From a virus (Duplodnaviria > Heunggongvirae > Uroviricota > Caudoviricetes), in IMG/VR virus record IMGVR_UViG_3300042997_001281, positions 181,394-245,393 of that record: DNA of 64,000 bases, one strand, 5' to 3'. Numbering within the stretch: the stretch's first letter is position 1; every line of letters starts with the position of its first letter. A program made the translations under genes and the position numbers. Below, one piece after another: positions 15,852 to 55,252 of the stretch. The notes under the pieces were generated by a model. It saw only the letters and a list, made by a program, of their open reading frames with translations, was not told the DNA's origin and did not search any database.

Positions 15852-15852
15852 A

Positions 15853-22582: not shown

Positions 22583-22789
22583 ATGAGTACACTTTTTAAC
22601 GGGGACTTTGAATATGAAGAGGAATCGGACTTTAAAGAATTCCTTGAAACTATTGAACCTGAAAACGCATTAAAACTTATCGATATCGCACTTACCCATG
22701 CGAACAAAGAAGGTGCGTTCACAATCGAAGAATCATATTGCATTTACAAATGCATAGATAAATTAAAAAAACAACAGAATGAAAATTAA
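22583..22789 (+). CDS. Hypothetical acidic protein
   Basis: ATG at 22583. The listed ORF begins at an upstream TTG. Confidence 0.45.
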   Translation: MSTLFNGDFEYEEESDFKEFLETIEPENALKLIDIALTHANKEGAFTIEESYCIYKCIDKLKKQQNEN

Positions 22790-23909: not shown

Positions 23910-23913
23910 TAAA

Positions 23914-24276: not shown

Positions 24277-25565
24277 TGAATAACATAGATAAACAATATC
24301 AATTACTCCTACAAGACATTCTTGATAATGGAGTTAAGAAAGAAACAAGAAATGGTGGTACCATTTCAGTATTTGGTAGACAAATACGTCATAAAATGAG
24401 TGAAGGGTTTCCTTTACTTACAACCAAGAAGATGGCTTGGAAAACTATTGTAACTGAATTATTATGGTTCTTACGTGGTGATACAAACATTAAATATTTA
24501 GTTGATAACAATTGTCACATTTGGAATGGTGATGCTTACCAAGCCTATATTAAAAGATATAATAAAGGTGAATATGTTGGTAAAACCAAATTATTAGAGA
24601 ATTCTAAGAAAAATAGAACATTAACTGAACCATTTACAATAGAAGAATTTATTGACAAAATCAAAACCGATGATGAGTTTGCTAAGAAATGGGGTGAGTT
24701 AGGTCCAATATATGGTAAACAATGGAGAAGTTGGGAAACCGAGGATGAATATCTCGATGGGGTATCATATTTCAAATACCCACCAATAGACCAAATCCAA
24801 AATCTAATCAACGACCTTAAAACAAATCCAGACTCAAGACGATTAATGGTTAGTGCTTGGAATGTGGGGGAGTTGGATAAAATGACTTTACCTCCTTGTC
24901 ATTATGGATTTCAAGTTTATACAAGAGAGTTGAGTTTGAATGATAGAGTATTAGAATTTACAAAAAGAGATTTAGACCCTTCTGAGTTTAGAAGAGGTGG
25001 TAATTATGGGACAGTAATTCCTGAAGAAAGGACATTAGAAGTTCTAAACAATCATAATATCCCAACAAGAGCAATCTCATTAATGTGGAATCAACGTTCA
25101 GTAGATACATTCTTAGGTTTACCATTCAACATTGCATCTTATGGATTGTTATTGGAAATAATTGCTAAAACTGTTAATATGGTACCTGATGAGTTGATTG
25201 GTAATTTAGGTGATGTACATTTGTATTCAAATCATATTGAACAGGCTAAAGAACAGATTGGAAGAAAATACACTCACGAAGAGAGAACAGAATTGTTAAA
25301 GACCGCAATGGGTGATTTTTATAAAACAGCGGTTGATGAACAAGTACCATTCGGTGGTGGTTTAAGTGAGTATTATAATTCTTACAAAATACCAAATCAC
25401 ACAAGAGAACCATTTAAATTACCCACATTAAAAATCAATTCAGGTAATGAAAATTGGCATTTATTAACCGTAGATGAGGTTATTAATACTTTAGATGTGG
25501 ATATCACTTTTAAAACGGATAATTACCAATCGCATTCAACAATTAAGGCGCCCTTGTCCAATTGA
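24273..25565 (+). CDS. thyA: Thymidylate synthase ThyA family, dUMP-specific, with three insertions
   Basis: Colinear with E. coli ThyA: R..GT.S.FG.Q.R, GFPLLTTKK, ELLWFLRGDTN, GPIYGKQWR, DQIQNLINDLKTNPDSRR, VSAWNVGELDKMTLPPCH, RSVDTFLGLPFNIASY with the Asn retained, GDVHLYSNH and C-terminal IKAPL. It carries about 50-aa, 50-aa and 40-aa insertions relative to the 264-aa enzyme. Confidence 0.88.
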   Translation: MMNNIDKQYQLLLQDILDNGVKKETRNGGTISVFGRQIRHKMSEGFPLLTTKKMAWKTIVTELLWFLRGDTNIKYLVDNNCHIWNGDAYQAYIKRYNKGEYVGKTKLLENSKKNRTLTEPFTIEEFIDKIKTDDEFAKKWGELGPIYGKQWRSWETEDEYLDGVSYFKYPPIDQIQNLINDLKTNPDSRRLMVSAWNVGELDKMTLPPCHYGFQVYTRELSLNDRVLEFTKRDLDPSEFRRGGNYGTVIPEERTLEVLNNHNIPTRAISLMWNQRSVDTFLGLPFNIASYGLLLEIIAKTVNMVPDELIGNLGDVHLYSNHIEQAKEQIGRKYTHEERTELLKTAMGDFYKTAVDEQVPFGGGLSEYYNSYKIPNHTREPFKLPTLKINSGNENWHLLTVDEVINTLDVDITFKTDNYQSHSTIKAPLSN

Positions 25566-25636
25566 TATGAAAAATAACCAACAATTAAAGCACCTTTTTC
25601 ACAACTTTTATATATTTATACTAAAAGAAATAATAT

Positions 25637-26299
25637 ATGGCAGTTGTTTATTTACACAAAAAGAAAAATACTAATGAAGTTTTTTATGTTGGGATTGGCC
25701 TTTATGAAGAAAGAGCTTATTCTTATAGAAATAGAAACATACATTGGAAAAACGTTGTTGCTAAATATGGATATGATGTTGAAATTATTGAATCGGATAT
25801 TGAATGGGAAGGTGCATGTGATACTGAAAAATATTTAATTCAAAAATATGGTAGAGATACATTGACAAATATGACAGATGGCGGTGAGGGGTTATTCAAT
25901 CCATCAGATGAAGTTAGAGAAAAGTTAAGATACCCAAAAACAGAAGAGCATAAACAAAAATTAAGAGAGTATCAAATTGGGGTAACGCAATCTGAAGAAA
26001 CAATACAAAAAAGAATATCACATGGATTTCATAAATCTGATGAGTATAGATATAAAATGAGTATTGCATTATCAGGTGATAATAATCCAATGAAAAAAGA
26101 AGAGAATAGAGAAAAATTAAGGAAACCAAAACCACCAAGAACAAAAGAACATAGTAAAAAAATAAGTGAAACCAAAAAGGGAAAACCTACATGGAACAAA
26201 GGTAAAACTTTAGAAAAATTTGTTTGTGATATTTGTAGCAAACAAATTGGTGGGTATGGTAATCTATTACAACACAAAAAGAAACATTTATCAAATTAG
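25637..26299 (+). CDS. GIY-YIG homing endonuclease with NUMOD3-like repeats
   Basis: VVYLHKKKNTNEVFYVGIG…R…HWKN is a GIY-YIG motif. It has a basic C-terminal region with repeated …E(E/T)xxKxS/R… helices. It is free-standing immediately downstream of thyA. Confidence 0.8.
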   Translation: MAVVYLHKKKNTNEVFYVGIGLYEERAYSYRNRNIHWKNVVAKYGYDVEIIESDIEWEGACDTEKYLIQKYGRDTLTNMTDGGEGLFNPSDEVREKLRYPKTEEHKQKLREYQIGVTQSEETIQKRISHGFHKSDEYRYKMSIALSGDNNPMKKEENREKLRKPKPPRTKEHSKKISETKKGKPTWNKGKTLEKFVCDICSKQIGGYGNLLQHKKKHLSN

Positions 26300-26764: not shown

Positions 26765-27006
26765 TGTTTATCCACATCACACCTGACGAATTTGTAGAAG
26801 AGTTTAGAGAATCTTGGAAATTGGGGTACATATCCCAACCTTCAATAGATTATGCAACAAACGCAATCCATGTTTGGTTTGAGGGTAGAGATTGTATTTT
26901 ATTTAATTTTAAGGATTATGGTTGGTTTAATGATAACCGATTCAATACATATAGTATGTCATCGGGACCCGCAGGGATAACGATACAAATAACAAAAACT
27001 AGATAA
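26764..27006 (+). CDS. Hypothetical protein
   Basis: ORF of 80 aa. Confidence 0.45.
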   Translation: MFIHITPDEFVEEFRESWKLGYISQPSIDYATNAIHVWFEGRDCILFNFKDYGWFNDNRFNTYSMSSGPAGITIQITKTR

Positions 27007-27545
27007 TGAAACTAATGGATATTATTAATGAAGAAAACAAACCAAAGTACGAATTTGGTTGTGCAATGTTGTACTTCGCATTTCCTGAAATGAAGTACAT
27101 CCACGGTATGATTGACCCTAACGATGTTTACACCGAAGAAGAAGATGGTTCATTCGGATTGGAGACAGAACCACATACCACATTACTATATGGTTTACAC
27201 GATGGTGTATCCATTGATGATGTAAAAAATGTATTGAATAAACACACATACCCATCATGTAAAGTACATAACCCGTCATTGTTTAAGAACAAACAATATG
27301 ATGTATTAAAGTTCGATGTTGAGGGTGACAGTCTTCATGATGCAAATGGTGAATTGAGAGGGTATCCACACACAAACGATTATCCTGATTACCACCCACA
27401 TTTAACCGTGGCATATCTTAAACCGGGAACGGGTAATAAGTACATTAGGAAGATGATAGGTTTAAATTACGAACTAACACCACAACATGCGGTGTATTCA
27501 CAACCAAACGGAGAAAAAACAAAGATAAAGATAAACGTAGACTAA
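27006..27545 (+). CDS. 2H phosphoesterase superfamily protein (LigT/ThpR/Acb1-like)
   Basis: Two H-x-T/S-x motifs, HTTLLYG and HLTVAYL, spaced about 85 aa apart in a 179-aa protein. This is the 2H fold signature. Confidence 0.6.
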   Translation: MKLMDIINEENKPKYEFGCAMLYFAFPEMKYIHGMIDPNDVYTEEEDGSFGLETEPHTTLLYGLHDGVSIDDVKNVLNKHTYPSCKVHNPSLFKNKQYDVLKFDVEGDSLHDANGELRGYPHTNDYPDYHPHLTVAYLKPGTGNKYIRKMIGLNYELTPQHAVYSQPNGEKTKIKINVD

Positions 27546-44534: not shown

Positions 44535-44932
44535 TGCCTAACAAAAAAATAAGTCCTTACATATATCCGGGTTTGAAGATTGAATTTTTAGATTCAAGAA
44601 AACATCCGTATTTGAAGAAATCCAAAATGGTTATTACAGAAGAACAAATTTTTGAAATTGTTGGTCGGGATTATGGATTAACAAAAGAACAAATTATCTC
44701 TCGTTCAAGAAAGAGAGAGTGTGTCGAATCAAGACATTTAATTGCGTACATTATTAAAAGAAAGACGAGATTTTCTTTAGCGAAGATTGGTGAGATGGTG
44801 GGCGGTAAAGACCACACAACAATCATTCATTCCATTAGAACGTTTGAAGATTTATTTGGTACTGATTCGGTATTCAGAGAAAGATGTGAAAATGTTTTTG
44901 CTAAAGTGGGAATCGACCCCAAAAGTGTATGA
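44534..44932 (+). CDS. DnaA C-terminal (domain IV) DNA-binding domain protein
   Basis: SRSRKRECVESRHLIAYIIKRKTRFSLAKIGEMVGGKDHTTIIHSIRTFEDL aligns with E. coli DnaA [52 protein letters not shown]. Confidence 0.8.
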   Translation: MPNKKISPYIYPGLKIEFLDSRKHPYLKKSKMVITEEQIFEIVGRDYGLTKEQIISRSRKRECVESRHLIAYIIKRKTRFSLAKIGEMVGGKDHTTIIHSIRTFEDLFGTDSVFRERCENVFAKVGIDPKSV

Positions 44933-45408
44933 AATTATTAATAACATTACTGTTCATCTTACCTCTACAGTTGTTTGGGCAACCATCATCTTTATTGAGT
45001 AGACCGTTTCAAAAGGCGTTCAACTACTCATTATCCTACGGGAATAGAGGTGGTGGTTCGTTCTATTCAGTTGGGTATTCATTATCCAATAGGTACGGAA
45101 TGTCTAATATTGAAATTGGACACAGGAGAATGTCCGCCGGTTTGTATATGGTAAACAACGAACCATTTGTTTTTAACGCATACAGTGATGATGTTTACGT
45201 TGGTGGTAACTATGTTTTTAGACATAAAGACATTAAGAGACTTGTACCAACAATTGGGTTGGGTGTTGATGTTAGGGACTATACTAAAACAATGTTTAGA
45301 GTAAGTGCGGACTATAAACTAACATACCCATTTTATGCTTCAGTAAGTTATGTGAATATGAAAAACGAACATAACTTATTCTGTGGTATAAAACTTTACT
45401 TATATTAA
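44929..45408 (+). CDS. Secreted or outer-membrane protein with a signal peptide
   Basis: MKLLITLLFILPLQLFGQ signal peptide followed by a Y/G/S-rich beta-type sequence. Confidence 0.45.
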   Translation: MKLLITLLFILPLQLFGQPSSLLSRPFQKAFNYSLSYGNRGGGSFYSVGYSLSNRYGMSNIEIGHRRMSAGLYMVNNEPFVFNAYSDDVYVGGNYVFRHKDIKRLVPTIGLGVDVRDYTKTMFRVSADYKLTYPFYASVSYVNMKNEHNLFCGIKLYLY

Positions 45409-45409
45409 T

Positions 45410-45787
45410 ATGAAGATTGCATTGATTGCCCATGATGGGAAGAAGGCGGACATGGTTGCCTTTGTGATGAAGAGATTATATTTCTTCAACCGAGAAGATG
45501 TTGATATTGTTGCCACAGGTACAACAGGTAAACGAATTATGTTTGCTGGCATAACTAAAGTGGACACAGTCAACTCAGGTCCTATGGGTGGTGATGCTGA
45601 AATCGCAGCAATGGTCGCAAGAAAAGAAATGACTGCGGTTATATTCTTTAGAGACCCGTTGGATAGACATCCCCATGAACCCGATGTACAAATGTTAATG
45701 AGAGTTTGTGATGTTCACGAAGTACCATTAGCAACAAACTACGCCACTGCCAAGATGATAGTGGACCAGTTAATCGTTTCCAATTAA
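45410..45787 (+). CDS. mgsA: Methylglyoxal synthase
   Basis: IALIAHDGKK, ATGTTG, SGPMGGDAEIAAMV, IFFRDPLDRHPHEPDV and VPLATNYATA are colinear with E. coli MgsA. Confidence 0.88.
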   Translation: MKIALIAHDGKKADMVAFVMKRLYFFNREDVDIVATGTTGKRIMFAGITKVDTVNSGPMGGDAEIAAMVARKEMTAVIFFRDPLDRHPHEPDVQMLMRVCDVHEVPLATNYATAKMIVDQLIVSN

Positions 45788-45798
45788 ATAAAATAATC

Positions 45799-46212
45799 TT
45801 GAACAAATTGAACTTAATCAACACACACCCAATTAAGAAATCGGATTTAGGATTTCATGGGAACCTCTTCGGGGGCAAACTTACTAGTTGGATAGACTCA
45901 TCAGCTGCATCGTATGCGATGGAGATTTGTCACAATAGACGAATGGTAACCATCTGTATCGATAAATGTATTTTTAAAAAACCAGCAAGAGAAGGTTCGT
46001 TACTTAAAATATATGGTGATGTTGTTAAAATTGGTAACACATCTATAACACTTTACTTGGAGGCAAGGTCGTTCAACGTGTACACACACGAAGAAGATGT
46101 TATACTATCCACCAACATCACCTTTGTTCGTGTTGACGAGGATGGTAACGCAATACCAATTAGTGATAAAGTTCGTGAGAGACTTACTCGGGAACTAAAT
46201 TCTAGAATTTAA
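45799..46212 (+). CDS. Hotdog-fold acyl-CoA thioesterase (YciA/4HBT-like)
   Basis: FHGNLFGGKLTSWIDSSAASYAME…V…IDKCIFKKPAREG. Confidence 0.65.
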   Translation: MNKLNLINTHPIKKSDLGFHGNLFGGKLTSWIDSSAASYAMEICHNRRMVTICIDKCIFKKPAREGSLLKIYGDVVKIGNTSITLYLEARSFNVYTHEEDVILSTNITFVRVDEDGNAIPISDKVRERLTRELNSRI

Positions 46213-46228
46213 AAATATTTTTAATTTT

Positions 46229-46260
46229 TTTTGGATATTCCAAAAACCTTACTATATTTG
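46229..46260 (+). promoter_or_regulatory. Phage promoter, variant palindrome TTTTGGATATTCCAAAA plus TATATTTG
   Basis: Lies upstream of the small ORF at 46285. Confidence 0.5.
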
Positions 46261-46284
46261 TAGTGAAGTTTAAAACTATTCACA

Positions 46285-46449
46285 ATGAATGACCTAAAAA
46301 ATATAAAGAATTGGGTAATTGTCACCGACAATGGTAAAACGTTTTACTACGAAACGTTTGACGAGGCGTTAAGGATGACCAAGATTATCGTTGGTCATTT
46401 AATGAGTAAGGAATATTATGAATTTCATTACAGTAAATTGAACAATTGA
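46285..46449 (+). CDS. Small hypothetical protein (54 aa)
   Basis: ORF not in the track. It follows promoter and -7 elements. Confidence 0.3.
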   Translation: MNDLKNIKNWVIVTDNGKTFYYETFDEALRMTKIIVGHLMSKEYYEFHYSKLNN

Positions 46450-46489
46450 GTTTGGTCCGATGTTTGTTTAACCCTAAAAACCTAAAATT

Positions 46490-47056
46490 ATGTTTTATAA
46501 ATTTGATACAAATACATTAGTGTGGAGGAAAGATTTAAAGAAAACAAAGATTGCATTATCAGTCGTTGTGGTCTTAATGTTCGCAACGTTCCTACTTGGT
46601 AGATTCTATAGGTTCACAACATTAGATGAACATGAAATGGAACTATTGGTTGTTAGTCTCGACCAACAAAAAAATGAATTCACTGAAGATAAATTTGCCG
46701 ATGAACTTAAACGATTGAATGTTCGTTTTCCTCATATAGTAATGGCACAATCTATTCTTGAGACAGGTGCATTTAAAAGTAACATATTCAAAGAGAACCA
46801 CAACTTATTTGGAATGAAACAGGCAACTATTCGAATCAACACCGCTAAGGGTACACAGAATGGTCATGCATACTATGAGAACTGGTATGAATCTGTTTAC
46901 GATTACGCATTCTATCAATGTCGATACCTTTCATCTATTCGTAACGAACAGGAATATTTCACTTACCTCAGTGGTAGTTACGCCGAGTCGGGGGACAAAT
47001 ATGTTACCTCATTGAAAGATGTGATAGAAAAACACAAACTAAAAGAATTATTTTAA
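46490..47056 (+). CDS. Membrane-anchored mannosyl-glycoprotein endo-beta-N-acetylglucosaminidase (FlgJ-type glucosaminidase domain) lysin
   Basis: N-terminal TM (IALSVVVVLMFATFLLG). FPHIVMAQSILETGAFKS…NHNLFGMKQA…YESVYDYAFY matches the glucosaminidase domain. Confidence 0.7.
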   Translation: MFYKFDTNTLVWRKDLKKTKIALSVVVVLMFATFLLGRFYRFTTLDEHEMELLVVSLDQQKNEFTEDKFADELKRLNVRFPHIVMAQSILETGAFKSNIFKENHNLFGMKQATIRINTAKGTQNGHAYYENWYESVYDYAFYQCRYLSSIRNEQEYFTYLSGSYAESGDKYVTSLKDVIEKHKLKELF

Positions 47057-47172
47057 AAATGACTTTAAAAACCAAATAGAATTTGTTATCATTATCATAA
47101 CACTACCCTGAGTATGTGTATCGGTGACTACCGCACTTTCTGTCATATTGGTTAAATTTGTTTTTTAGAATT

Positions 47173-47203
47173 AAAACCCTCATAGTTTATGGGGGTTTTT
47201 TAT
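47173..47203 (+). terminator. Rho-independent terminator
   Basis: CCCTCATA-GTT-TATGGGGG followed by T6. Confidence 0.7.
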
Positions 47204-47213
47204 TTACAAATAA

Positions 47214-47245
47214 TTTGGAATATTCGAAGTAATCTCTTATATTTG
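47214..47245 (+). promoter_or_regulatory. Phage promoter with the conserved palindromic -33 element
   Basis: TTTGGAATATTCGAAG-N8-TATATTTG, with the ATG at 47262. Confidence 0.6.
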
Positions 47246-47261
47246 TACCATAAAAAATATT

Positions 47262-47996
47262 ATGAGTTTTACATTTTACGAAGTTGGGGGAAAAGTAAGG
47301 GACGAAATCTTGGGGTTAACATCTAAAGATGTGGATTATGTTGCAGTACCCACCCAATCTTTATTGGATTTATACACTGAGGCGGAGGATATGTTCACGG
47401 TTTTACACTATTATCTTGTCTCTGAAAAGTTTGAAATATTCTTGGAAACACCATCATGTTTCACCATTAGAGCACGGTTCCCTGAGGGACACCGTTACCA
47501 AGGTGTTGCAGACTTCGTAATGGCTCGAAAGGAAGTTGGATACATAAGTGGTACCCGAATACCTATCGTTAAACCAGGGACCTTATATGACGATTTAGAA
47601 CGTAGGGATTTTACATTGAACGCGTTGGCAAAAGACGGTGATGGGAATATCATAGATTACTTTAATGGGATTGAGGATTTAAAGAGAGGGTATCTTCGTA
47701 CACCATTACCATGTACCGATACATTTGATGACGACCCACTTCGTATTCTGAGAGCAATCAGGTTCTGTATAACCAAAGGATTTTGGATAGGACCGGCGAT
47801 GGATAGTATTATGCAAGATTATGATTATGTTGGTAAGATGGGTGTTGTATCAACTGAAAGAATTAGAGAGGAATTATTCAAATGTTTTAAACACGATACC
47901 GTTAAAACATTGAAGACATTACATGAATACCCAGCATTAAGGAACTACATCTTCAAAGATAATACTCTTTGGTTAAAACCAACAATGGAACAATAG
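47262..47996 (+). CDS. cca: tRNA nucleotidyltransferase (CCA-adding enzyme or poly(A) polymerase head domain)
   Basis: FYEVGGKVRDEILGLTSKDVDYV (GG.VRD…D.D) and RRDFTLNALA (RRDFTINA signature). Confidence 0.85.
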   Translation: MSFTFYEVGGKVRDEILGLTSKDVDYVAVPTQSLLDLYTEAEDMFTVLHYYLVSEKFEIFLETPSCFTIRARFPEGHRYQGVADFVMARKEVGYISGTRIPIVKPGTLYDDLERRDFTLNALAKDGDGNIIDYFNGIEDLKRGYLRTPLPCTDTFDDDPLRILRAIRFCITKGFWIGPAMDSIMQDYDYVGKMGVVSTERIREELFKCFKHDTVKTLKTLHEYPALRNYIFKDNTLWLKPTMEQ

Positions 47997-48763
47997 TGAG
48001 CAACTTAGACTTAAACAAACTCGAAGAAAAACTTGACAATGCGTTAAGTAACGAAACAAGTGAATCATTAAACGAATGGTTAAAAGAAAAAAGAATGACA
48101 AACAATAAACAAAGTAGTATGGACAATATAGATTTAATTAGACCTCTCTTGAACTTTGAAAAAAGTGGGGACTTCTACATGTTATATGTTTTTAAACGTA
48201 AGAAAGACCAACCCGAAGGTGAAAGAGATAATCACCAATCGGTAAGGACAATTAAGACTTACTGTATTGAAAGTATCGAACATCTTGAACGTAGGTATGA
48301 AGAGATTAAACAACTCTGTGAGATGTTTAAGGCGAGAGCGTACATCCACGTTCAGAAACAAAACCATTTTGATGTGTCATTAAACATGATGGTTGATTTG
48401 GCACAACGTATTCAGAATGGTCAACACAACCAAAAGGGGTTATTTGATTCAGTTGTTGGTCAAATTAAAACACAGGAGAAGAGATGGATTATTGATGTTG
48501 ATGACATAAAAGAAATGAGTCCTCTTATGGTTGCATTTATTGAATACGAATGTAAACCAATTACTGAAGTTGAGTTCGACAGTGCGGGTATGCCAATAGG
48601 TTATAAAGTGGGACCGAAACTCGAGGCGGTTATTCCAACTAAGAATGGTCATCACTTAATTACTAAAAAGTTTGATGTTATGAAATTCAAAGAGAACTAT
48701 CCCGAATTAGATATACAAAAAAAGAATCCAACATTACTATACTTACCTAACTCTTTAAGTTAA
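47969..48763 (+). CDS. Hypothetical protein
   Basis: ORF of 264 aa. Confidence 0.5.
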   Translation: MVKTNNGTIVSNLDLNKLEEKLDNALSNETSESLNEWLKEKRMTNNKQSSMDNIDLIRPLLNFEKSGDFYMLYVFKRKKDQPEGERDNHQSVRTIKTYCIESIEHLERRYEEIKQLCEMFKARAYIHVQKQNHFDVSLNMMVDLAQRIQNGQHNQKGLFDSVVGQIKTQEKRWIIDVDDIKEMSPLMVAFIEYECKPITEVEFDSAGMPIGYKVGPKLEAVIPTKNGHHLITKKFDVMKFKENYPELDIQKKNPTLLYLPNSLS

Positions 48764-48784
48764 ACAATTTAAAATAAAACTATT

Positions 48785-49288
48785 ATGACACTATCAGATT
48801 TTGCTACATTAATACTTGGAGGTTTCCTGTTATTATCGATATTGTTAGTATTCGGAATACTTGTGTACGCGTTATTAAACAAATTATCATTATACGATAA
48901 GATAAAATATGTACACAAGTTTAAAATATCTGAGAAATACCGAACCAAAGTCAACCCAATTTATGAGTTAACTGAGAATAATTGGGATGGTTCCGTATTT
49001 TACATAAAAAAATGGTCTTTAAAGTATTATCAAAGAGAAGGTCATCAAATTTTATCCCTTTTCTTGATTTATCCCGTTGAATTTTTAACTTACGGTTATC
49101 AAAATGATGACACTATTTACTTGTGTAAGAAAAAGGATATTGAAACAATAGAAGGTACTTTGGATGAAAATTACGAAAGATTGTGGGCAATAGAAAATGA
49201 AAAGTATTTAATCGATAATGCATTGAAAGATAAACAACAAAATGTTATTAATGGGTTGAATAAGACTTTCAGTGAAAATTACGAATAA
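48785..49288 (+). CDS. Hypothetical protein with an N-terminal TM segment
   Basis: ORF of 167 aa. Confidence 0.5.
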   Translation: MTLSDFATLILGGFLLLSILLVFGILVYALLNKLSLYDKIKYVHKFKISEKYRTKVNPIYELTENNWDGSVFYIKKWSLKYYQREGHQILSLFLIYPVEFLTYGYQNDDTIYLCKKKDIETIEGTLDENYERLWAIENEKYLIDNALKDKQQNVINGLNKTFSENYE

Positions 49289-49317
49289 ACTTAAAACATA
49301 AAGACCCATAAAAAACA

Positions 49318-50583
49318 ATGAAAAGATTATCGAAAATTGGAAACGGAATCATCGGCTCAGAGATTATTAAAATCTCACAACAAATTAAAGAAATATCAAA
49401 AACTAAACCCGTTGCCAATTTAACAATAGGTGATTTTGATTCGAAGAAATGGCCAATACCTGAGAGGTTAAAGTTTTTCATTCAAGATGCGTACAACGAA
49501 GACCTAACCAACTATCCGGCATCACAGGGAGAACTAGATTTGAGAAAGTCGGTTAGTGATTACATGAAAACAAAACACGACATTGACTATTCACCCGAAG
49601 AGATATTAATTGGTGGAGGTGTTCGACCATTAATCTATACCATATTCAAAGGTACCGTAAATGATGGTGACTCTGTTATTTATCCGGTTCCATCGTGGAA
49701 TAACAATCACTACTCATTCTTACATAATGCGGTTAAAGATGTTATCGAATGTAAACCTGAGAACTCATTCTTCCCGAGTGTAATGGATATTGACGTTAAA
49801 ATTAAAAGGACCACATCATTGGTTTGTATTTGTTCACCACAGAACCCAACAGGTCGTGTTATAGACCCTGAAGTTTTAAAAGATATTTGTGATTTAATTG
49901 TAAATGAAAATAACGTTAGGAAAGACCACATAAATTCGAGACCTCTGTACCTTTTCTTTGACCAAATCTATTCTGATTTAACTCAAGATGATTTGTTTGT
50001 TCATCCATTAACACTATGTCCTGAGATTAAAGATTATTTGATTTGTGTTGATGGTATCTCCAAGTCACTTAATGCAACCGGTGTTCGTGTTGGTTGGGCG
50101 TTTGGACCTAAAGATATTATTGGAAAACTAACCGAGATATTTTCACACATCGGAGCGTGGGCACCAAAGGCGGAACAAAATGCGGTTGGTAAATTTATGT
50201 CAGATACTTTACCTGAGTTCACCCACCACACTCAAAATGTTACCACCAAATACAAACACATTACACATTCTATTTGTGATATGTTTGATAAGATGAAAGG
50301 TAAAGGATTCAGAGTTGACTGTCAAAGACCTGAAGGTGGAATATACATTTCAGTTTATATAGAATACACTCACTCATTTGCCAATACTGAGGATTACATA
50401 TCCTACTTAATCAATACGTGTGGTTTGGGTATTGTACCATTTGAATACTTTGGTTCAAAAGAAAACAAGGGTTGGTTTAGAATTTCAATTGGTAATATTG
50501 ATGAATTTAACCTTACCAGTATCATTGGTGTTATTGAAAACGCAATCATAAAATCACACACATATTACAACTCAATGGTGTAA
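49318..50583 (+). CDS. PLP-dependent aminotransferase, class I fold
   Basis: VDGISKSLNATGVRVGWAFGP carries the SxSK…G.R.G motif with the PLP-binding lysine. There is an upstream N-rich small-domain region. Confidence 0.72.
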   Translation: MKRLSKIGNGIIGSEIIKISQQIKEISKTKPVANLTIGDFDSKKWPIPERLKFFIQDAYNEDLTNYPASQGELDLRKSVSDYMKTKHDIDYSPEEILIGGGVRPLIYTIFKGTVNDGDSVIYPVPSWNNNHYSFLHNAVKDVIECKPENSFFPSVMDIDVKIKRTTSLVCICSPQNPTGRVIDPEVLKDICDLIVNENNVRKDHINSRPLYLFFDQIYSDLTQDDLFVHPLTLCPEIKDYLICVDGISKSLNATGVRVGWAFGPKDIIGKLTEIFSHIGAWAPKAEQNAVGKFMSDTLPEFTHHTQNVTTKYKHITHSICDMFDKMKGKGFRVDCQRPEGGIYISVYIEYTHSFANTEDYISYLINTCGLGIVPFEYFGSKENKGWFRISIGNIDEFNLTSIIGVIENAIIKSHTYYNSMV

Positions 50584-50622
50584 TCATTTTGTTTTTTAAA
50601 AAACTTTAATTATATTAAAAAT

Positions 50623-51504
50623 ATGAAAAATGTTATTGATGAGTTGGGTAATGAGCAAAAATACAAAGGAGGGTACACGGGAGAAATGTTTAAGTATCTA
50701 AAAAAGAAACTTAAAAATTTTGATGAATTTTTGTTTGTGATGTATTCTACTAATGGAAGTAAAACTCCTACTCCACTACCCAAACGAATCAATCATTCCA
50801 AAAAAGTTTTAATTTGGCATAGTAGTGAAAACAAAAGAAATAATATAAATGAGATAAAAAACGATTACACTCATATTTTTTCAAATTACTATTGGAATAC
50901 CAAAAATACAACATCAATACCTTTGGGTTATTTTACTGAAAGTATAAATTCCGAAATAATACCAATGGGTGAAAGACTATACAACATATCTTTTATTGGT
51001 TGTTTAAATAGAAACCGATTGGTATTGGCAAGTGAGTTGAGTGGTATTCGTAAGTTTTGGTTATCCATGGGATTATCATTCTACAAAAATAAAACTTTGA
51101 AAATTTTGAATAAAATCCTTCAATGGAAATGGAATAGAGATTTGTTTCAATTCAACGAAGATTTTAACAAAGGAATGGACTCGGAATTATACCAATACTT
51201 TTTACAACATAGTAAAATAGCACTTTGTCCAAGAGGTTGGACAAATTCAGAAACATTTAGATTGTATGAGGCCATGAAGTATGGTTGTGTAGTTATAACA
51301 GAAGAATTACCCGATAGGGAATACTATAAAAATATTCCAGTTATAAAAGTAGAAAATTGGAGTGATGGAATTAAAATCGCACGAAACTTACTCAAAAATC
51401 CTAAAAAATTGGAACAAATGGGATTAAATAATAAAAAATTTTACGAAGAATTTTTGAGTCCGAGAGCAACTGCGGAAATAATAATAAAAAAATTAAAAGT
51501 TTAA
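50623..51504 (+). CDS. Exostosin-like (GT47-type) glycosyltransferase
   Basis: KIALCPRGWTNSETFRLYEAMKYGCVVIT resembles the GT47 C-terminal motif (F.L.PRG….R..EA…GCIPVI). Confidence 0.5.
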   Translation: MKNVIDELGNEQKYKGGYTGEMFKYLKKKLKNFDEFLFVMYSTNGSKTPTPLPKRINHSKKVLIWHSSENKRNNINEIKNDYTHIFSNYYWNTKNTTSIPLGYFTESINSEIIPMGERLYNISFIGCLNRNRLVLASELSGIRKFWLSMGLSFYKNKTLKILNKILQWKWNRDLFQFNEDFNKGMDSELYQYFLQHSKIALCPRGWTNSETFRLYEAMKYGCVVITEELPDREYYKNIPVIKVENWSDGIKIARNLLKNPKKLEQMGLNNKKFYEEFLSPRATAEIIIKKLKV

Positions 51505-51545
51505 TTTGGTAAAACCGAATAATTGGAAAAAATTAATTATATTTG
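51505..51545 (+). promoter_or_regulatory. Bacteroidetes-type promoter (TTTG … TATATTTG)
   Basis: TTTG at 51505 and TATATTTG at about 51538, with the ATG at 51550. Confidence 0.4.
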
Positions 51546-51549
51546 AAAT

Positions 51550-52029
51550 ATGGGATGCGATATACATAGTTACTTAGAAAAATACACATCGATTAACGGT
51601 GAAAATAAATGGGTCAACGTTGACTACTGGCAAATAAATCCACACTTTGGGTTGGACGACTCTAAAAATGAATACGACCAAGTTTCATTTTACATTGGAA
51701 GAAATTATGAGTTGTTCGGAATACTTGCTGGTGTGAGAAGTTCTGAAGACCCAATTAAGGAGCCGAGAGGTTTACCTGAAGATGTGAGTGACGTTACCAA
51801 AAGAGAGTATGAAAAATGGGATGAGGTACATACACCTTCTTACTATACAATGAAAGAACTCAAAGATTACATTTACAATAATTCAGATAATAAAGAACTT
51901 ATTGAAACATTATCTTTTTTTGTTAACCCAATGAATGAAAGATTTAAAAATGAGTTTTGGATTGATGATGACAATCGACATACGATTAAAGAAAATGGAT
52001 TTAGAGTAGTTTTTTGGTTTGATAATTAA
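51550..52029 (+). CDS. Hypothetical protein
   Basis: ORF of 159 aa. Confidence 0.5.
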   Translation: MGCDIHSYLEKYTSINGENKWVNVDYWQINPHFGLDDSKNEYDQVSFYIGRNYELFGILAGVRSSEDPIKEPRGLPEDVSDVTKREYEKWDEVHTPSYYTMKELKDYIYNNSDNKELIETLSFFVNPMNERFKNEFWIDDDNRHTIKENGFRVVFWFDN

Positions 52030-52306
52030 AAACAAAATAGTTATGATAGATAGAGGAAACAAATTTTACGAAACCGCAAGAGAGTTTGTAAAAAAGTACG
52101 AAGTAAATGTAAGTGAACACATTATTGATATCATTGTATCAGTGATGGTAACTCGAGATGGTGTTGGTCCGATGGGTGGGAGTTTTGTTCAGTCAATCGT
52201 TGATAACAATTTATTCGAGGCAGTCAACCGTGCAGACCAAGACTGTCTGAAAAACCTCAAGATAATCGTGGCGGCGAATCGATACTGCCATTTAAAAAGT
52301 TTATAA
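52019..52306 (+). CDS. Hypothetical protein
   Basis: ORF of 95 aa. Confidence 0.4.
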   Translation: MIIKNKIVMIDRGNKFYETAREFVKKYEVNVSEHIIDIIVSVMVTRDGVGPMGGSFVQSIVDNNLFEAVNRADQDCLKNLKIIVAANRYCHLKSL

Positions 52307-52409
52307 AAATGAAGAATTGGAAATCTACGGATTGGGCAATTGCCGGAGTACTCGTACTGTGGATGGTACTTGTTTCTGTTATTGTATATTGTAGTTTATA
52401 AACAAAAAA

Positions 52410-52574
52410 ATGAAACACGAATATCATAACCCTACTGTCGAAAGAAGAGAGTTATTTAATCTAATGCGCACAAAATTCCCAAAAGGAATTAAAGAAAAAC
52501 AATTTTATTTCTCAATGACAGTCCGTCCCGAAAAGGTGGATTATTACATAGATTTATTCAATCAATATAAATAA
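52410..52574 (+). CDS. Small hypothetical protein (54 aa)
   Basis: ORF not in the track. It has an ATGA overlap with the next gene. Confidence 0.25.
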   Translation: MKHEYHNPTVERRELFNLMRTKFPKGIKEKQFYFSMTVRPEKVDYYIDLFNQYK

Positions 52575-52576
52575 AA

Positions 52577-53449
52577 ATGATTATCAAAAGTTTATCACCG
52601 GAATGGAAAGTTTGGATTTGGACAAACGTAGTAAATGGTTTAGGTAAAGAAAATATCTTTAACGTATTATTAAATCATGGATTTGAATATGATTTAATTT
52701 CTAAAGAATTAGATATGACACCTTCAAATCCTTTGATACAAAAAAGAAAGGATACCCAAGTAGCCCTTAATGAAACACCACCATTTACCATTCAACCTCT
52801 CTATAAACCGTTGTGTGATAACTCAGGTGTTTATAGAATCGAGACTGAGTTTTTGGAAATTTATACAATACCAAACTTCTTATCGGGTGAAGAATGTGGG
52901 GAGTTAATAGAACAGATGGTTGGTAAGTTGAGACAATCAACAGTGGTTACAAATACTAATGTTGAAGACGTTAGAACCAGTTCAACCTGTGATATGTTTT
53001 TAGATAATCCAATCTATAAATCCGTAAATGATAAGATACATTCGTTTATGAAATTACCCCACGAGTTGGGTGAAATACCACAAGGTCAGAAGTATCTAGT
53101 TGGTCAACAATTTAAAGAACACGGTGATTATTTTGATGAGAATTACGAACCCAATAAAGTGGGGTTAGTTAATCTTGGTCAAAGAACGTGGACATTCATG
53201 GTTTATCTTAATGATGTGGAAGAGGGTGGTGAAACACACTTCACAAAAATCGATAAAACATTAATTCCGAATACCGGAACTGCCGTTGTTTGGTCTAATA
53301 TTTTAAGAAATGGAAAACCAAATGAATACGCAAAACATTGCGGACTACCGGTTATCTCGGGTGAAAAAAACATCATCACTAAATGGTTTAGAGAAGGTCC
53401 TAAAATTATAAATTCACCACAAGAAATAACTTTAAAAGAAATATTATAA
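52577..53449 (+). CDS. Prolyl 4-hydroxylase-like 2OG-Fe(II) oxygenase
   Basis: KEHGDYFDE (HxD), TWTFMVYLNDVEEGGETHF, AKHCGLPV (distal His) and KNIITKW (2OG-binding Lys). Confidence 0.62.
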   Translation: MIIKSLSPEWKVWIWTNVVNGLGKENIFNVLLNHGFEYDLISKELDMTPSNPLIQKRKDTQVALNETPPFTIQPLYKPLCDNSGVYRIETEFLEIYTIPNFLSGEECGELIEQMVGKLRQSTVVTNTNVEDVRTSSTCDMFLDNPIYKSVNDKIHSFMKLPHELGEIPQGQKYLVGQQFKEHGDYFDENYEPNKVGLVNLGQRTWTFMVYLNDVEEGGETHFTKIDKTLIPNTGTAVVWSNILRNGKPNEYAKHCGLPVISGEKNIITKWFREGPKIINSPQEITLKEIL

Positions 53450-53460
53450 ATCTACATACT

Positions 53461-54180
53461 ATGAACCGTAAAGAAAAATTAACCAAATCTTTAATGGGTG
53501 CAATCAGAGCACTTGAAAATGGAACAGTAATTTACAATTGGCAGGAACAAGAAAGTTGTAACTGTGGTGTTGTATCTCAAGCAATGTTAGGGATAACAGG
53601 TACCGAGTTGAAACAACGACTTAAAGATGAGGATATCTTTACACACTCAATCTTTGAGAAGGTTAAAGATAAACCTGAGGTGGCAAAAACTTGGAAGAGC
53701 CTTATAAGTGCATGGTGCCCAATAACGGGAGTACCAATGAAACAGATTTTCGACGATTTAAACGATGCTGGATTAACTACTGATGACATCGCACACTTAG
53801 AGTATTTGGAAAATTCCGCAATATTAAAACGTTCAGGGATATCTACCCATCATAAAGTAACAACTGAAGTATTTGACCATTACGATTATATCCCAGTTAA
53901 TACTTTCTTCGGTAGATTGTTTGGAAGAACCAAAATGGTTGAAGTGAAGAAAATGGTTACCACAACCACTCAAGACCACAACTACTATTCTAAAAAGGGG
54001 AATGTTATTCTTTATTTGAAGGCGTGGGTTTCCATTCTACAAGAAGAAAGAGAACCAATTCAAGAAGATTTATCTGGAGAATCAAAACAGGAACTCCAAG
54101 AGAGATTACTCATTGCGGTTGCAGATGAGAACTATGAAATGGCCGCGAAACTTAGAGATGAGTTAGTTATTTCTCATTAA
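53461..54180 (+). CDS. Hypothetical protein with a C-terminal UVR (UvrB/UvrC-type) motif
   Basis: ELQERLLIAVADENYEMAAKLRDEL. Confidence 0.45.
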   Translation: MNRKEKLTKSLMGAIRALENGTVIYNWQEQESCNCGVVSQAMLGITGTELKQRLKDEDIFTHSIFEKVKDKPEVAKTWKSLISAWCPITGVPMKQIFDDLNDAGLTTDDIAHLEYLENSAILKRSGISTHHKVTTEVFDHYDYIPVNTFFGRLFGRTKMVEVKKMVTTTTQDHNYYSKKGNVILYLKAWVSILQEEREPIQEDLSGESKQELQERLLIAVADENYEMAAKLRDELVISH

Positions 54181-54199
54181 TATCTTCATCCACAATTTT

Positions 54200-54760
54200 T
54201 TATAATAATCTAAATTTTTTTATTGCTGATACATCCCAAATGCAACCAGAATTTGCATCAATGGTATATGCCCAATAATATTCTTTTGATTCTTGATGTA
54301 AATTTCTAACACCAATCTCTTCATAATTTGGAAACTCGATACCTTTATATTTTTTTGAAACTAAATCCCAATTAATATTGTGTGGATAATTTTGGTGTGT
54401 ACTATATTTTTCTGTAAACTCTTTAAATAAATCTTCTGTATTCAGAATCATAATTTCACTCATATCTAAATATAATTTATAAATATAAACCTCACTATTC
54501 ATCACACCCTTTAATGGTACGTTTTCCTTGGTATCCCAAGTAACACCATATTTTTTAAAATTAATCCAATTATCACCGAATCCATACCATAAACCTCCCG
54601 GTTTTCCGTGAACATCTTGATTTTTAACTCCGTTTTCAATTTTATCAATTGGTGTTTTACTTAGATGAATTCTTTCTTGACTACCTAATTCCAATCTTTC
54701 ATTCACAAAATGTTTAAAGTTTTTTACTTTATCAATCATTTTACGTATATCTCCACCCAT
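54200..54760 (-). CDS. Hypothetical protein on the minus strand
   Basis: ORF of 186 aa that is co-oriented with the next gene. Confidence 0.5.
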   Translation of the reverse strand: MGGDIRKMIDKVKNFKHFVNERLELGSQERIHLSKTPIDKIENGVKNQDVHGKPGGLWYGFGDNWINFKKYGVTWDTKENVPLKGVMNSEVYIYKLYLDMSEIMILNTEDLFKEFTEKYSTHQNYPHNINWDLVSKKYKGIEFPNYEEIGVRNLHQESKEYYWAYTIDANSGCIWDVSAIKKFRLL

Positions 54761-54847
54761 AATTTTTTATTTATATATAAATATCACCGCCCCTATATTG
54801 AGAACACCACCAATATTACATAGATTTATTCGGAAAATATAAATAAA

Positions 54848-55252
54848 TTAACCTTCCCACACTCCCGATTCGGTGATTACAGGACTACCATTCCTGTCAA
54901 TCATAACCCATTCTGCCTTTACCATACCGAAAGGTTCAAAACACTTTAATACGGTACCCAAGTTAAAACATTTACAACTGTAGATGTCAAACTGTGCCAT
55001 TGGTAACTCATAATGGTCCCAAATGTGTATTGACCCGTGTGATGTGGCTAATGTTACGGTTCCCGTTAACCCCTCATTACCTGGGTCGGATACATAGACA
55101 CTGGTTGGCCCAGCAACTACCCTCATTCCAACCGAATCTACGAGGTGTATAAACCATTTATTTAGTTGTTCTTCCTTCTTAGGAGGATTAGTCATCCAAC
55201 ACTTTAATAATAGGTGTTGATGATAGGGTTCAAATACTTCTATTTTGTCCAA
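54848..55252 (-). CDS. Pyruvoyl-dependent S-adenosylmethionine decarboxylase-like proenzyme (SpeH class)
   Basis: HQHLLLKCW … TGTVTLATSHGSIHIWDHYELPMAQFDIYSC aligns with the class-1a AdoMetDC [28 protein letters not shown], including the Ser of the cleavage site. Confidence 0.62.
   Translation of the reverse strand: MDKIEVFEPYHQHLLLKCWMTNPPKKEEQLNKWFIHLVDSVGMRVVAGPTSVYVSDPGNEGLTGTVTLATSHGSIHIWDHYELPMAQFDIYSCKCFNLGTVLKCFEPFGMVKAEWVMIDRNGSPVITESGVWEG

Follow-up and report, generated by a model that had tools for sequence, protein, structure and literature searches.

The stretch of DNA analysed here, 64,000 nucleotides long and referred to as the window, contains genes for six metabolic enzymes between positions 45410 and 55252, standing among genes of phage type. 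The question raised by this locus is whether the enzymes constitute a coordinated set resembling that of the chloroviruses, as a preliminary description suggested, or have been acquired one at a time. The six open reading frames are present, profile searches match the families proposed for them, and catalytic residues are kept. We consider it likely that the region is an accessory island of variable gene content, made up of individually acquired enzyme genes of bacterial type. The encoded enzymes are predicted from their sequences to be functional and under purifying selection, and would not belong to a single pathway. Ordinary phage genes are interleaved with them, namely those for a tRNA nucleotidyltransferase and an endolysin-like hydrolase, joined in some strains by a putative homing endonuclease gene. 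One item of the island, an intact methylglyoxal synthase (MgsA), is little described, and is common to many uncultured large phages.

Methylglyoxal synthase

MgsA is encoded on the plus strand at 45410..45787, as a short form of 125 amino acids. It scores 154 bits with NF003559 (cutoff 84) and 146.9 bits with TIGR00160, which equals the cutoff of that model, and matches MgsA structures in the PDB with E values down to 5e-34. In alignment with E. coli MgsA (b0963) there is 40% identity in the catalytic core and all the active-site residues are kept, i.e. His19, Asp20, Lys23, Thr45/47/48, Ser65, Gly66, Asp71, Asp91, His98 and Asp101; the fold and active site are those of the bacterial enzymes. 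The two proteins had been described as nearly colinear. This is true of the catalytic core, but the phage protein lacks both terminal extensions of the E. coli enzyme, 11 residues at the N-terminus and roughly 25 at the C-terminus. Short bacterial chains of 126–147 residues are known (2x8w, 1wo8 and 8u2v), and the length is close to that of the Bacteroidota enzymes (median 124 versus 123 residues), from which the phage protein differs by three clade-specific, non-catalytic substitutions (V19, F26 and Y111). The active-site residues are at least 98% conserved in 53 viral and 72 bacterial sequences. When the window was compared with the sampled contigs L003 and L004, which show the same changes in MgsA, 18 synonymous and no nonsynonymous differences were counted. 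At the level of sequence MgsA is thus shown to be a canonical methylglyoxal synthase, predicted to convert DHAP into methylglyoxal and phosphate.

The metagenome collection contains the exact protein in 42 of its blocks, and relatives with 61–87% identity occur on at least 168 IMG/VR contigs. The fetched loci all have a GC content of 27–40%, and in one of them a major head protein is encoded about 2 kb from MgsA. The closest enzymes outside this group are those of Bacteroidota, with 58–67% identity. In an unbootstrapped neighbor-joining tree the viral proteins form one group, which includes those of a few MAG contigs and lies apart from the enzymes of Cytophagales, Bacteroidales and Saprospiraceae; MgsA belongs to a clade common to many large low-GC viral contigs. 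It was not found in PHROGs, nor in genuine GenBank phages as far as these were checked; 22 GenBank 'phage' records have an MgsA match, of which one (MT835478) was examined, the other 21 being unannotated and many of them short. Phage-encoded MgsA had been described as uncharacterised. This holds for its biochemistry, but a study of the Lake Baikal virome (PMC8066274) already lists the gene among viral auxiliary metabolic genes, on a large freshwater viral scaffold of 120 kb. That listing came from automatic annotation, with no residue, phylogenetic or distribution analysis.

The surroundings of MgsA vary, synteny with the window being limited to about 15 of 80 loci. Thymidylate synthase is among the neighbors in 15 of 64 non-redundant loci, and by our reading of representative sequences ribonucleotide reductase and DNA polymerase are neighbors too. 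Most likely MgsA would raise the capacity of the host for the methylglyoxal bypass during infection. Phosphate trapped in triose phosphates would be released, and the flow of carbon would be kept going while phage DNA draws in phosphate. We base this role on the gene neighborhood and the established physiology of MgsA; the lack of any neighboring gene for handling methylglyoxal counts against it.

The enzyme might instead be a weapon of host takeover or competition with no part in phosphate recycling, its product arresting host growth and damaging the DNA and proteins of the host or of rivals. Bacterial growth is halted by methylglyoxal, a potent electrophile, MgsA is strictly conserved, and no glyoxalase or other methylglyoxal-handling gene was seen among the neighbor genes of the MgsA loci. 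Yet the replicating DNA and the proteins of the phage would suffer the same damage. Moreover the differences from the host-type enzyme are confined to three non-catalytic positions, so there is no hint of deregulation, and the frequency with which MgsA adjoins genes of nucleotide synthesis, that of thymidylate synthase among them, is a better fit to a supply role. We therefore give the weapon role rather little weight, and prefer the release of phosphate.

The SpeD homologue

The minus-strand gene at 54848..55252 encodes a class 1b SpeD homologue. Its match to PF02675 (41.4 bits, cutoff 25) upholds the earlier assignment to the AdoMetDC fold, and the processing serine, the histidine and the cysteine are all kept. 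The function then proposed, decarboxylation of S-adenosylmethionine, is probably wrong. By the criteria of PMC10407285, a proline is completely conserved in true AdoMetDCs; here it is replaced by aspartate. The score with the equivalog TIGR03330 is 29.4, against a cutoff of 75.65.

The motifs of the protein match those of a characterised phage enzyme. The SpeD homologue of pelagiphage HTVC201P (AXH71538) is a biochemically proven pyruvoyl-dependent arginine decarboxylase (Li et al., PNAS 2023, PMC9992855), and is also a small class 1b proenzyme of the AdoMetDC fold lacking a speE partner. Motif comparison revealed that both proteins have TSH, HxWD and PMxQ(F/L)D(I/V)Y(S/T)C, so that threonine precedes the processing serine, HxWD takes the place of HxWPE and the Q-x-D-x-Y-(S/T)-C element is shared, as is a two-residue insertion. 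They differ in that the window protein has valine rather than glutamine at position −5 from the serine, and HTVC201P is a podovirus of SAR11 whereas for the jumbo phage of the window a host among Bacteroidota is predicted. The SpeDC enzymes, pyruvoyl ornithine decarboxylases known from freshwater phages and bacteria (Li et al., JBC 2023, PMC10407285), are of the same superfamily and also have threonine before the processing serine, but only one of their four diagnostic residues (Gln, Thr, Phe and Tyr) is found in the window protein. We conclude that the SpeD homologue is most likely a pyruvoyl-dependent amino-acid decarboxylase, with arginine as the predicted substrate. The choice of arginine is a soft one, because identity with the HTVC201P enzyme is only about 32% and close relatives of that enzyme proved to be ornithine decarboxylases.

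There are 907 homologues, and the best 120 of these are 72–96% identical, on contigs of up to 345 kb. A tblastn search of the GenBank phage collection at E 1e-3 found only pelagiphages and one uncultured phage fosmid; the true SpeDs of cyanophages and Croceibacter phage were not matched. This too argues against a genuine S-adenosylmethionine decarboxylase that uses the spermidine synthase of the host, as do the absent proline, the low equivalog score, the features in common with the HTVC201P enzyme, and the failure of the latter to complement delta-speD. The PF02675 score above the gathering threshold and the conserved processing residues would suit such an enzyme, and there are phages, e.g. 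S-PM2 and Croceibacter phage P2559S, that have a true SpeD but no speE to go with it, but on balance we think it improbable. As an arginine decarboxylase, the protein would most likely cleave itself between Thr70 and Ser71 to generate the pyruvoyl enzyme, and the agmatine formed would enter the polyamine pathway of the host. This would explain the missing spermidine synthase, none having been found, as noted before, among the window ORFs scanned.

The SpeD homologue had been paired with an unannotated neighbor on the same strand, a 186-amino acid protein (54200..54760) for which an ADP-ribosyltransferase-like fold is weakly predicted. The pair is real, but the neighbor is rejected as a partner since none of the 56 related SpeD-homologue loci has it, nor does a strain 95–98% identical in DNA. 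It lies in a strain-specific insertion of 1.39 kb along with a plus-strand gene for a 239-amino acid protein (53461..54180) with a C-terminal UVR motif (PF02151, 22.9 bits); window positions 53450–54840 are missing from strain L169.

Gene content of the island

The four remaining enzymes are encoded on the plus strand. A YciA-like hotdog acyl-CoA thioesterase (45799..46212; PF03061, 52.8 bits; phrog_18230) has 3d6l as its best PDB match (6e-16), followed by YciA (HI0827) entries. The gene at 49318..50583 encodes a PLP aminotransferase of class I/II, similar to aspartate aminotransferase (PF00155, 142.7 bits; phrog_5879). In alignment with AatA (6f77) the SK residues of the chain motif GVSKAYAMTGWRIGY are matched by GISKSLNATGVRVGW, and we take the lysine to be the PLP lysine, as in the family. 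Its pN/pS is 0.06, and relatives of 50–69% identity are found at 40 IMG/VR loci, at none of which does it adjoin the glycosyltransferase. The latter (50623..51504) is of GT-B type and resembles RXYLT1_C (35.4 bits, cutoff 27); it had no match in PHROG, NCBIfam or PDB sequence searches. It had been called a GT47 or exostosin-like enzyme; the glycosyltransferase part of this stands, but GT47 is not established because Exostosin_GT47 gave only 22.4 bits against a cutoff of 33.4. The sixth enzyme is a 2OG/Fe(II) oxygenase resembling bacterial prolyl 4-hydroxylase (P4H; 52577..53449; PF13640, 48.7 bits; phrog_61, 1.9e-25). Its catalytic domain is like those of the B. anthracis P4H (3itq and 5iax), with which it aligns over about 180 residues retaining HxD, the distal histidine and the lysine, and of the phrog_61 phage oxygenases. 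What sets it apart is a further domain, of about 90 residues, at the N-terminus. As judged by alignment, thioesterase, aminotransferase and prolyl hydroxylase all keep their catalytic residues.

Relatives were compared over up to 10 kb on each side of the anchor gene. The thioesterase is deleted in strain L004, and three more distant relatives (L089, L090 and L103) lack it together with the aminotransferase and the glycosyltransferase. In L003 window positions 48780–49290 are replaced by about 1.7 kb that include a gene with a faint NUMOD3 match. The island genes are each distributed differently over the viral contigs of IMG/VR. These strain-level insertions and deletions, with the different neighborhoods in relatives, indicate independent gain and loss, and the six genes do not behave as a set.

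The variation bears directly on the proposal of one coordinated chlorovirus-like programme, inherited or converged upon as a whole. In such a programme virion proteins might, for instance, be modified by the aminotransferase, glycosyltransferase and prolyl hydroxylase while polyamines are also made. The genes come and go separately even between strains 95–98% identical. Furthermore, the aminotransferase is of the amino-acid type (PF00155) and not the sugar type, the window has no collagen-like Gly-X-Y substrate, and the P4H is much nearer to the enzyme of B. anthracis (E 2e-30) than to that of PBCV-1 (1.7e-7). To be set against this, P4H relatives occur not only on IMG/VR phage contigs but also on contigs that were binned into giant-virus MAGs, where some are full-length matches with 33–36% identity. 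The glutamine synthetase and glycosyltransferase operon described elsewhere in the window are indeed there, the operon with UDP-galactopyranose mutase, and there is another GT2. We judge the coordinated programme to be very improbable and largely refuted, and return to an island of separate acquisitions.

The phage and its relation to known systems

The phage setting is confirmed by profile searches, which gave tail-fiber and virion PHROGs and two further plus-strand genes within the island. The first (46490..47056; PF01832, 58.6 bits; endolysin PHROGs) encodes an endolysin-like cell-wall hydrolase of the glucosaminidase family with a hydrophobic N-terminal segment, and in syntenic relatives it directly follows MgsA. 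The second (47262..47996; phrog_24229, 8e-61; PF01743) encodes the head domain of a phage-type tRNA nucleotidyltransferase, 46% identical to the homologue of Cellulophaga phage phi4:1. A terminator-like hairpin lies between them at 47173–47199. In MT835478 MgsA has the mreC-PBP2-minCD-rodA context of a bacterial chromosome, but that the enzyme genes here are bacterial DNA misjoined to a phage contig, or the flank of a prophage, is scarcely credible given that independent assemblies from several JGI, ENA and Logan metagenome samples agree in this gene order, that phage genes lie on both sides of the enzyme genes and between them, that GC content is uniform across the window, and that the viral MgsAs cluster together.

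Related contigs are 230–345 kb in length, and the best explanation of the window is an uncultured jumbo phage with a low GC content (about 33%) and a genome of roughly 300 kb. It is probably aquatic and probably infects Bacteroidota, to judge from MgsA similarity, GC content, a single sample number and resemblance to the published 'moraphages'. The sample number is shared with a MAG whose name contains 'ME2018-04-20 ... Rohwer', presumably denoting Lake Mendota.

The likeness to chloroviruses is one of functional category, MgsA, P4H and the decarboxylase being of prokaryotic type. The repertoire of PBCV-1 (P4H, polyamine enzymes, glycosyltransferases and vSET) overlaps in these categories, but no specific homology was found. 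A SET-domain protein had been reported in the window, yet none was seen among the ORFs scanned, which did not take in every small one. PBCV-1 makes polyamines with PLP-dependent ODC/ADC, AIH and NCPAH, and does not use an enzyme of the SpeD fold; its route also includes homospermidine synthase. We know of no MgsA in PBCV-1, and thus of no chlorovirus counterpart.

There is also a likeness, by description, to the moraphages (PMC12619734). These are jumbo phages from aquatic habitats, reaching 307 kb, which carry glutamine synthetase genes and are predicted to infect Bacteroidota. The auxiliary-metabolic-gene section of that paper makes no mention of MgsA, SpeD homologues or P4H. The features in which the window matches the moraphages are size class (from the related contigs), the predicted link to Bacteroidota, glutamine synthetase and homing endonucleases.

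Enzyme genes between 45410 and 55252 and their phage setting

The ORF map of 44-57 kb contains all six of the enzyme genes listed in the preliminary description, and profile searches confirmed their families. That observation stands, while its interpretation, as a chlorovirus-like metabolic set, survives only in part. Five of the genes lie on the plus strand. Methylglyoxal synthase (MgsA; 45410-45787) scores 154.4 bits with NF003559 (cutoff 84) and 146.9 bits with TIGR00160, equal to the cutoff of 146.9. The others are a 4HBT hotdog thioesterase (45799-46212; PF03061, 52.8 bits), a class I/II aminotransferase (49318-50583; PF00155, 142.7 bits), a GT-B glycosyltransferase (50623-51504; RXYLT1_C, 35.4 bits, cutoff 27) and a 2OG/Fe(II) oxygenase of the prolyl 4-hydroxylase type (P4H; 52577-53449; PF13640, 48.7 bits, cutoff 27). 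The sixth gene (54848-55252, minus strand) encodes an AdoMetDC-fold protein that passes PF02675. Ordinary phage genes are interspersed, one for an endolysin-like protein of the glucosaminidase family and one for a tRNA nucleotidyltransferase of phage type (phrog_24229, 8e-61).

The aminotransferase is aspartate-aminotransferase-like, and scores under every NCBIfam equivalog cutoff. The SK of its motif is matched in alignment to 6f77 (AatA), and we take its Lys to be the PLP-binding lysine. The gene has a pN/pS of 0.06, indicating purifying selection. In the thioesterase the motif GNLFGGKLTSWID aligns with GNIFGGWILSQID of 3d6l, and the Asp is matched that is presumably catalytic in YciA enzymes. 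The YciA equivalog cutoff is missed (40 against 162), and the thioesterase is therefore assigned at the level of the family only. The glycosyltransferase had been described as GT47 or exostosin-like, a name that its scores do not support. Exostosin_GT47 (PF03016) reaches 22.4 bits against a gathering score of 33.4, and it is the related GT-B family RXYLT1_C that passes. Comparison of this protein with PDB sequences returned nothing meaningful.

The window as a whole is phage DNA. It includes tail-fibre and virion-protein PHROGs and a thymidylate synthase, together with a DNA methylase and a glycan operon, and its GC content ranges over 30-42%. A 2759-aa ORF occupies 162-8441; its PHROG matches are short, of tail-fibre type and found only near residues 118-170. 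Megablast matched the region to none of the GenBank phages, and the window lacks tRNA genes. Scans for sigma-70 promoters (55 against 50.7, with a tool that does not cover Bacteroidota promoters) and for terminators (5 against 5.5) did no better than in shuffled sequence. The one convincing hairpin of the terminator scan is at 47173-47199.

Companion genes had also been named elsewhere in the window. The glycosyltransferase operon is present at 13661-20767 (minus strand), just downstream of tail-fibre and virion genes. It is a glycan-synthesis operon of GT2 enzymes, UDP-galactopyranose mutase (Glf, 247 bits), a methyltransferase and GT4-like proteins. The glutamine synthetase was likewise found, as a 376-aa glutamine synthetase-like protein within 22779-26299. 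The same stretch has a HAD phosphatase, a NUMOD3 homing-endonuclease gene and a 430-aa thymidylate synthase with an apparent insertion relative to the PHROG profile. At 27006-27545 there is a 179-aa 2H-phosphoesterase-like protein, whose match to the anti-CBASS protein Acb1 stays below threshold (25.7 bits against 27). The SET-domain protein of the preliminary description was not recovered, there being no SET domain among the window ORFs scanned.

The phage methylglyoxal synthase

The window MgsA is 40% identical to E. coli b0963 by pairwise alignment. It is identical at E. coli H19, D20, K23, T45, T47, T48, S65, G66, D71, D91, H98 and D101, corresponding in the same order to H8, D9, K12, T36, T38, T39, S56, G57, D62, D82, H89 and D92 of the window protein. 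We take these residues to form the active site and bind phosphate. Careful alignment thus bore out the earlier assignment, with every catalytic residue kept. Across 53 unique viral and 72 bacterial sequences the catalytic residues are at least 98% conserved, and the viral and bacterial enzymes are separated at three positions only, all non-catalytic. Comparison with two near-identical strains (L003 and L004; ~95% DNA identity over the gene) reveals 18 synonymous and no nonsynonymous differences, the same in both. Because the catalytic residues are conserved and there are no nonsynonymous differences between strains, we judge the phage MgsA to be canonical and under strong selection, and predict that it turns DHAP into methylglyoxal and phosphate (EC 4.2.3.3). 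The N- and C-terminal extensions of the E. coli protein are missing from it and likewise from its best PDB matches (solved chains of 126-147 residues), and it is about equal in length to the Bacteroidota enzymes (median 123 residues).

The family is absent from PHROGs. IMG/VR contains at least 168 contigs, of up to 297 kb, with intact MgsA relatives 61-87% identical, and all the MgsA loci fetched have a GC content of 27-40%. The exact protein was recorded in 42 blocks of the metagenome collection; the contigs that encode it range from <2 kb to the 0.2-1 Mb class. The loci that were fetched, which come from JGI, ENA and Logan samples, agree in gene order around MgsA. At a distant locus (MgsA 64% identical) a major head protein (phrog_138, 3e-67) is encoded ~2 kb from MgsA. 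In the literature joining methylglyoxal synthase, phages and auxiliary metabolic genes we found only a Lake Baikal virome survey, which lists mgsA on a 120-kb scaffold (PMC8066274).

A tblastn search of GenBank phages with MgsA gave 22 matches. The one record examined, MT835478.1 ('Bacteriophage sp.'), has its MgsA within an mreC-PBP2-minC-minD-rodA cluster. This context marks the surrounding DNA as bacterial chromosome, and the record was rejected as a source of phage MgsA. The other records are unannotated and many are short, and none was counted as a cultured-phage MgsA; fragments labeled 'Listeria phage LM' and 'Enterococcus phage' are among them, and may likewise be host DNA. On this basis the search found no MgsA in genuine cultured phages.

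In a neighbor-joining tree, calculated without bootstrap support, the viral sequences lie together with a few MAG contigs, apart from the enzymes of Cytophagales, Bacteroidales and Saprospiraceae. The latter are 58-67% identical to the window protein, and the nearest cellular MgsAs are those of Bacteroidota. The MAG contigs inside the viral group are three from Flavobacteriales or Bacteroidia bins and three of high GC content. The high-GC contigs (L009, L010 and L012; 62-66% GC) come from MAGs labeled proteobacterium, Cognaticolwellia and 'uncultured bacterium'. Their MgsAs are 70-73% identical to that of the window and up to 79% identical to other viral MgsAs, and group with the low-GC viral sequences. 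This placement suggests either transfer between unrelated genomes or mis-binning.

The commonest neighbor of MgsA is thymidylate synthase, immediately downstream in 15 of 64 non-redundant viral loci. Other neighbors, read from representative sequences, include ribonucleotide reductase subunits and a DNA polymerase. No conserved partner, a glyoxalase or similar, was found across the 64 loci. Immediately upstream of MgsA in the window (44929-45408) is a gene for a 159-aa protein with an apparent signal peptide, a C-terminal aromatic residue and no Pfam match, which looks like a small outer-membrane beta-barrel. The 15 loci that share synteny with the window have relatives of this protein, 33-36% identical.

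The bacterial methylglyoxal bypass releases phosphate from triose phosphates under phosphate scarcity. We infer that the phage MgsA would boost this bypass during infection. Two things would fit a role in phosphate release: MgsA is frequently found among genes of nucleotide synthesis, and a genome of ~300 kb makes a heavy demand on phosphorus. The main rival is that the enzyme acts as a toxin or host-arrest agent. It is possible, if rather doubtful, that phage MgsA represents a widespread and previously unexamined strategy in which the bypass is turned on in infection, whether to provide phosphate for DNA synthesis or to arrest the host. Such a strategy may be that of a canonical clade under strict purifying selection, carried by many different large low-GC phages, at least some of them from freshwater. 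If phosphate is freed or methylglyoxal made, this would be a new lever beside the known ways in which phages rewire central carbon and phosphorus metabolism, and the effect would be of most consequence in phosphorus-limited lakes. More speculatively, nucleotide synthesis might also draw on aspartate made by the aminotransferase and on glutamine made by the glutamine synthetase of 22779-26299. Auxiliary metabolic genes of this kind reveal the host bottlenecks that limit phage output.

The SpeD homologue and the oxygenase of prolyl 4-hydroxylase type

The minus-strand gene at 54848-55252 had been taken to encode an AdoMet decarboxylase. Its motif LATSHGSIHIW...DIYSC aligns to 1tlu and 2iii, and the self-processing Ser and the catalytic His and Cys (S63, H68 and C83 in T. 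maritima) are present. Many phage SpeD homologues are not AdoMet decarboxylases; HTVC201P encodes a pyruvoyl arginine decarboxylase, and among freshwater phages several of the homologues decarboxylate ornithine (PMC9992855). A second paper from the same (Michael) laboratory provides diagnostic residues (PMC10407285). The proline of HxWPE is completely conserved in true AdoMet decarboxylases and not in arginine decarboxylases, and the SpeDC ornithine decarboxylases are recognised by a set of four, Gln, Thr, Phe and Tyr. We aligned the window protein and its clade with the homologue from HTVC201P and a true SpeD, that of Croceibacter phage P2559S. Also included were the SpeD1 and SpeD2 domains as printed in the supplement of the second paper, where OCR errors are possible.

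An AdoMet decarboxylase function is unlikely on this comparison. The diagnostic Pro is replaced by Asp (HIWDH against HxWPE), and the protein scores 29.4 bits with the TIGR03330 equivalog, where the cutoff is 75.65. The diagnostic residues do not support a SpeDC ornithine decarboxylase either. Just one of the four markers is present, the Thr at -1, the positions being inferred from the printed SpeD2 domains with their possible OCR errors; at the other three the window protein has Val, Ile and Gln, and it retains the Trp that follows the catalytic His. The features TSH, WD, a two-residue insertion and P-M-x-Q-(F/L)-D-(I/V)-Y-(S/T)-C are shared, within the alignment, with the arginine decarboxylase of HTVC201P alone. 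In a tblastn search of GenBank phages the only matches were homologues of pelagiphages (HTVC group) and one uncultured phage fosmid (E 1e-12 to 1e-18), and true cyanophage SpeD was not matched. We conclude that the protein is a predicted pyruvoyl amino-acid decarboxylase, and arginine is its most likely substrate. The family has 907 homologues, the best 120 of the 907 being 72-96% identical and on contigs of up to 345 kb.

The earlier remark that no spermidine synthase is visible holds for the window ORFs scanned. Bacteroidota typically make spermidine from agmatine by the carboxyspermidine route, requiring neither AdoMet decarboxylase nor SpeE, which would accord with the lack of a spermidine synthase here. 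The assignment would extend the SpeD-derived amino-acid decarboxylases to a very abundant lineage of jumbo phages, and is a warning that the 'AdoMetDC' label on phage genes is often wrong.

The best solved relatives of the P4H are that of B. anthracis (2e-30) and animal and algal enzymes, and the P4H of PBCV-1 (5c5t) matches with 1.7e-7 only. In the alignment with the B. anthracis enzyme the HxD...H iron triad, including the distal His, and the 2OG-binding Lys are kept. No collagen-like Gly-X-Y or proline-rich substrate was found in the window. The repertoire had been likened to that of chloroviruses. Yet the P4H is nearer to bacterial enzymes, MgsA is nearest to Bacteroidota, and the nearest phage relatives of the SpeD homologue are in pelagiphages.

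Relatives of the P4H in IMG/VR are on phage contigs and on about ten contigs binned as giant-virus MAGs (L275, L279, L283, L286, L288, L291-L293, L296 and L300; 33-45% identical). In some of the latter the match, with 33-36% identity, spans the whole protein and takes in the N-terminal domain, and this is the one point that lends the giant-virus comparison some colour. A further contig in a giant-virus bin (L209; IMGVR_UViG_GVMAG-S-3300010160-96_000001) has a SpeD homologue 72% identical to that of the window. Either such bins contain phage contigs, as L209 might exemplify, or a P4H with this N-terminal domain is common to phages and giant viruses. The absence of a chlorovirus-like module guards against taking likeness at the level of category as an evolutionary link.

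Variability of the island and comparison with known systems

Nor do the six genes form one set, as had been supposed, since near-identical strains differ in content and the neighborhoods of relatives differ. In strain L004 (95% identity) exactly the thioesterase gene is missing. L169 (95-98% DNA identity) lacks 53450-54840 of the window, 1.39 kb with a 239-aa UVR-motif gene (plus strand) and a 186-aa gene (minus strand). In L003 ~1.7 kb takes the place of the gene at 48785-49288, including a gene with a faint match to NUMOD3, a homing-endonuclease motif. Three other loci (L089, L090 and L103; MgsA 82-87% identical) have a glucosaminidase gene directly after MgsA, and no aminotransferase or glycosyltransferase within the stretches fetched. 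Synteny with the window is seen at only about 15 of 80 MgsA loci, and the neighborhoods of 56 IMG/VR relatives of the SpeD homologue are varied. The aminotransferase and glycosyltransferase were considered as a conserved pair and rejected, as they are adjacent in none of 40 aminotransferase relatives. The enzymes are intact, selected and independently distributed bacterial-type proteins in a variable island.

One 82-kb contig of a different phage (IMGVR_UViG_3300021430_000416, the source of locus L103) encodes both an MgsA (82% identical) and a SpeD homologue (71%), ~26 kb apart. The two therefore co-occur beyond the lineage of the window, unlinked. In L169 the SpeD-homologue gene, directly beside the indel, has 85.7% DNA identity to that of the window where its flanks have 95-98%, which suggests a hotspot of local recombination or allele swapping.

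The 186-aa gene (54200-54760, minus strand) had been proposed as a partner of the decarboxylase. It is present at none of the 56 IMG/VR loci with relatives of the SpeD homologue, and is missing from L169; it is part of a strain-specific insertion, unlinked to the decarboxylase. The protein has only 39 detectable homologues, with an identical copy on a contig of 310,691 bp. An AlphaFold model (30 sequences; mean pLDDT 76) matched uncharacterised proteins of Klosneuvirus, Faunusvirus and Fadolivirus in BFVD (E 6e-10 to 9e-6), as well as phage ART-PolyVal-like domains (~1e-4). R30 is near-invariant, and E142 and S171 are invariant. Tentatively, these could form an R-E-S arrangement in a predicted fold like that of ADP-ribosyltransferases.

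These genes belong with the known auxiliary metabolic genes of jumbo phages. The most original element is the clade of phage MgsA, and the most useful correction is that the 'AdoMetDC' now reads as a likely arginine decarboxylase. The phosphate-acquisition genes known in cyanophages are of the type of pstS and phoH, and a role of MgsA in phosphate release, if true, would be a tactic distinct from these. Likeness to the moraphages is limited to the size class, the predicted Bacteroidota host phylum and the glutamine synthetase (PMC12619734).
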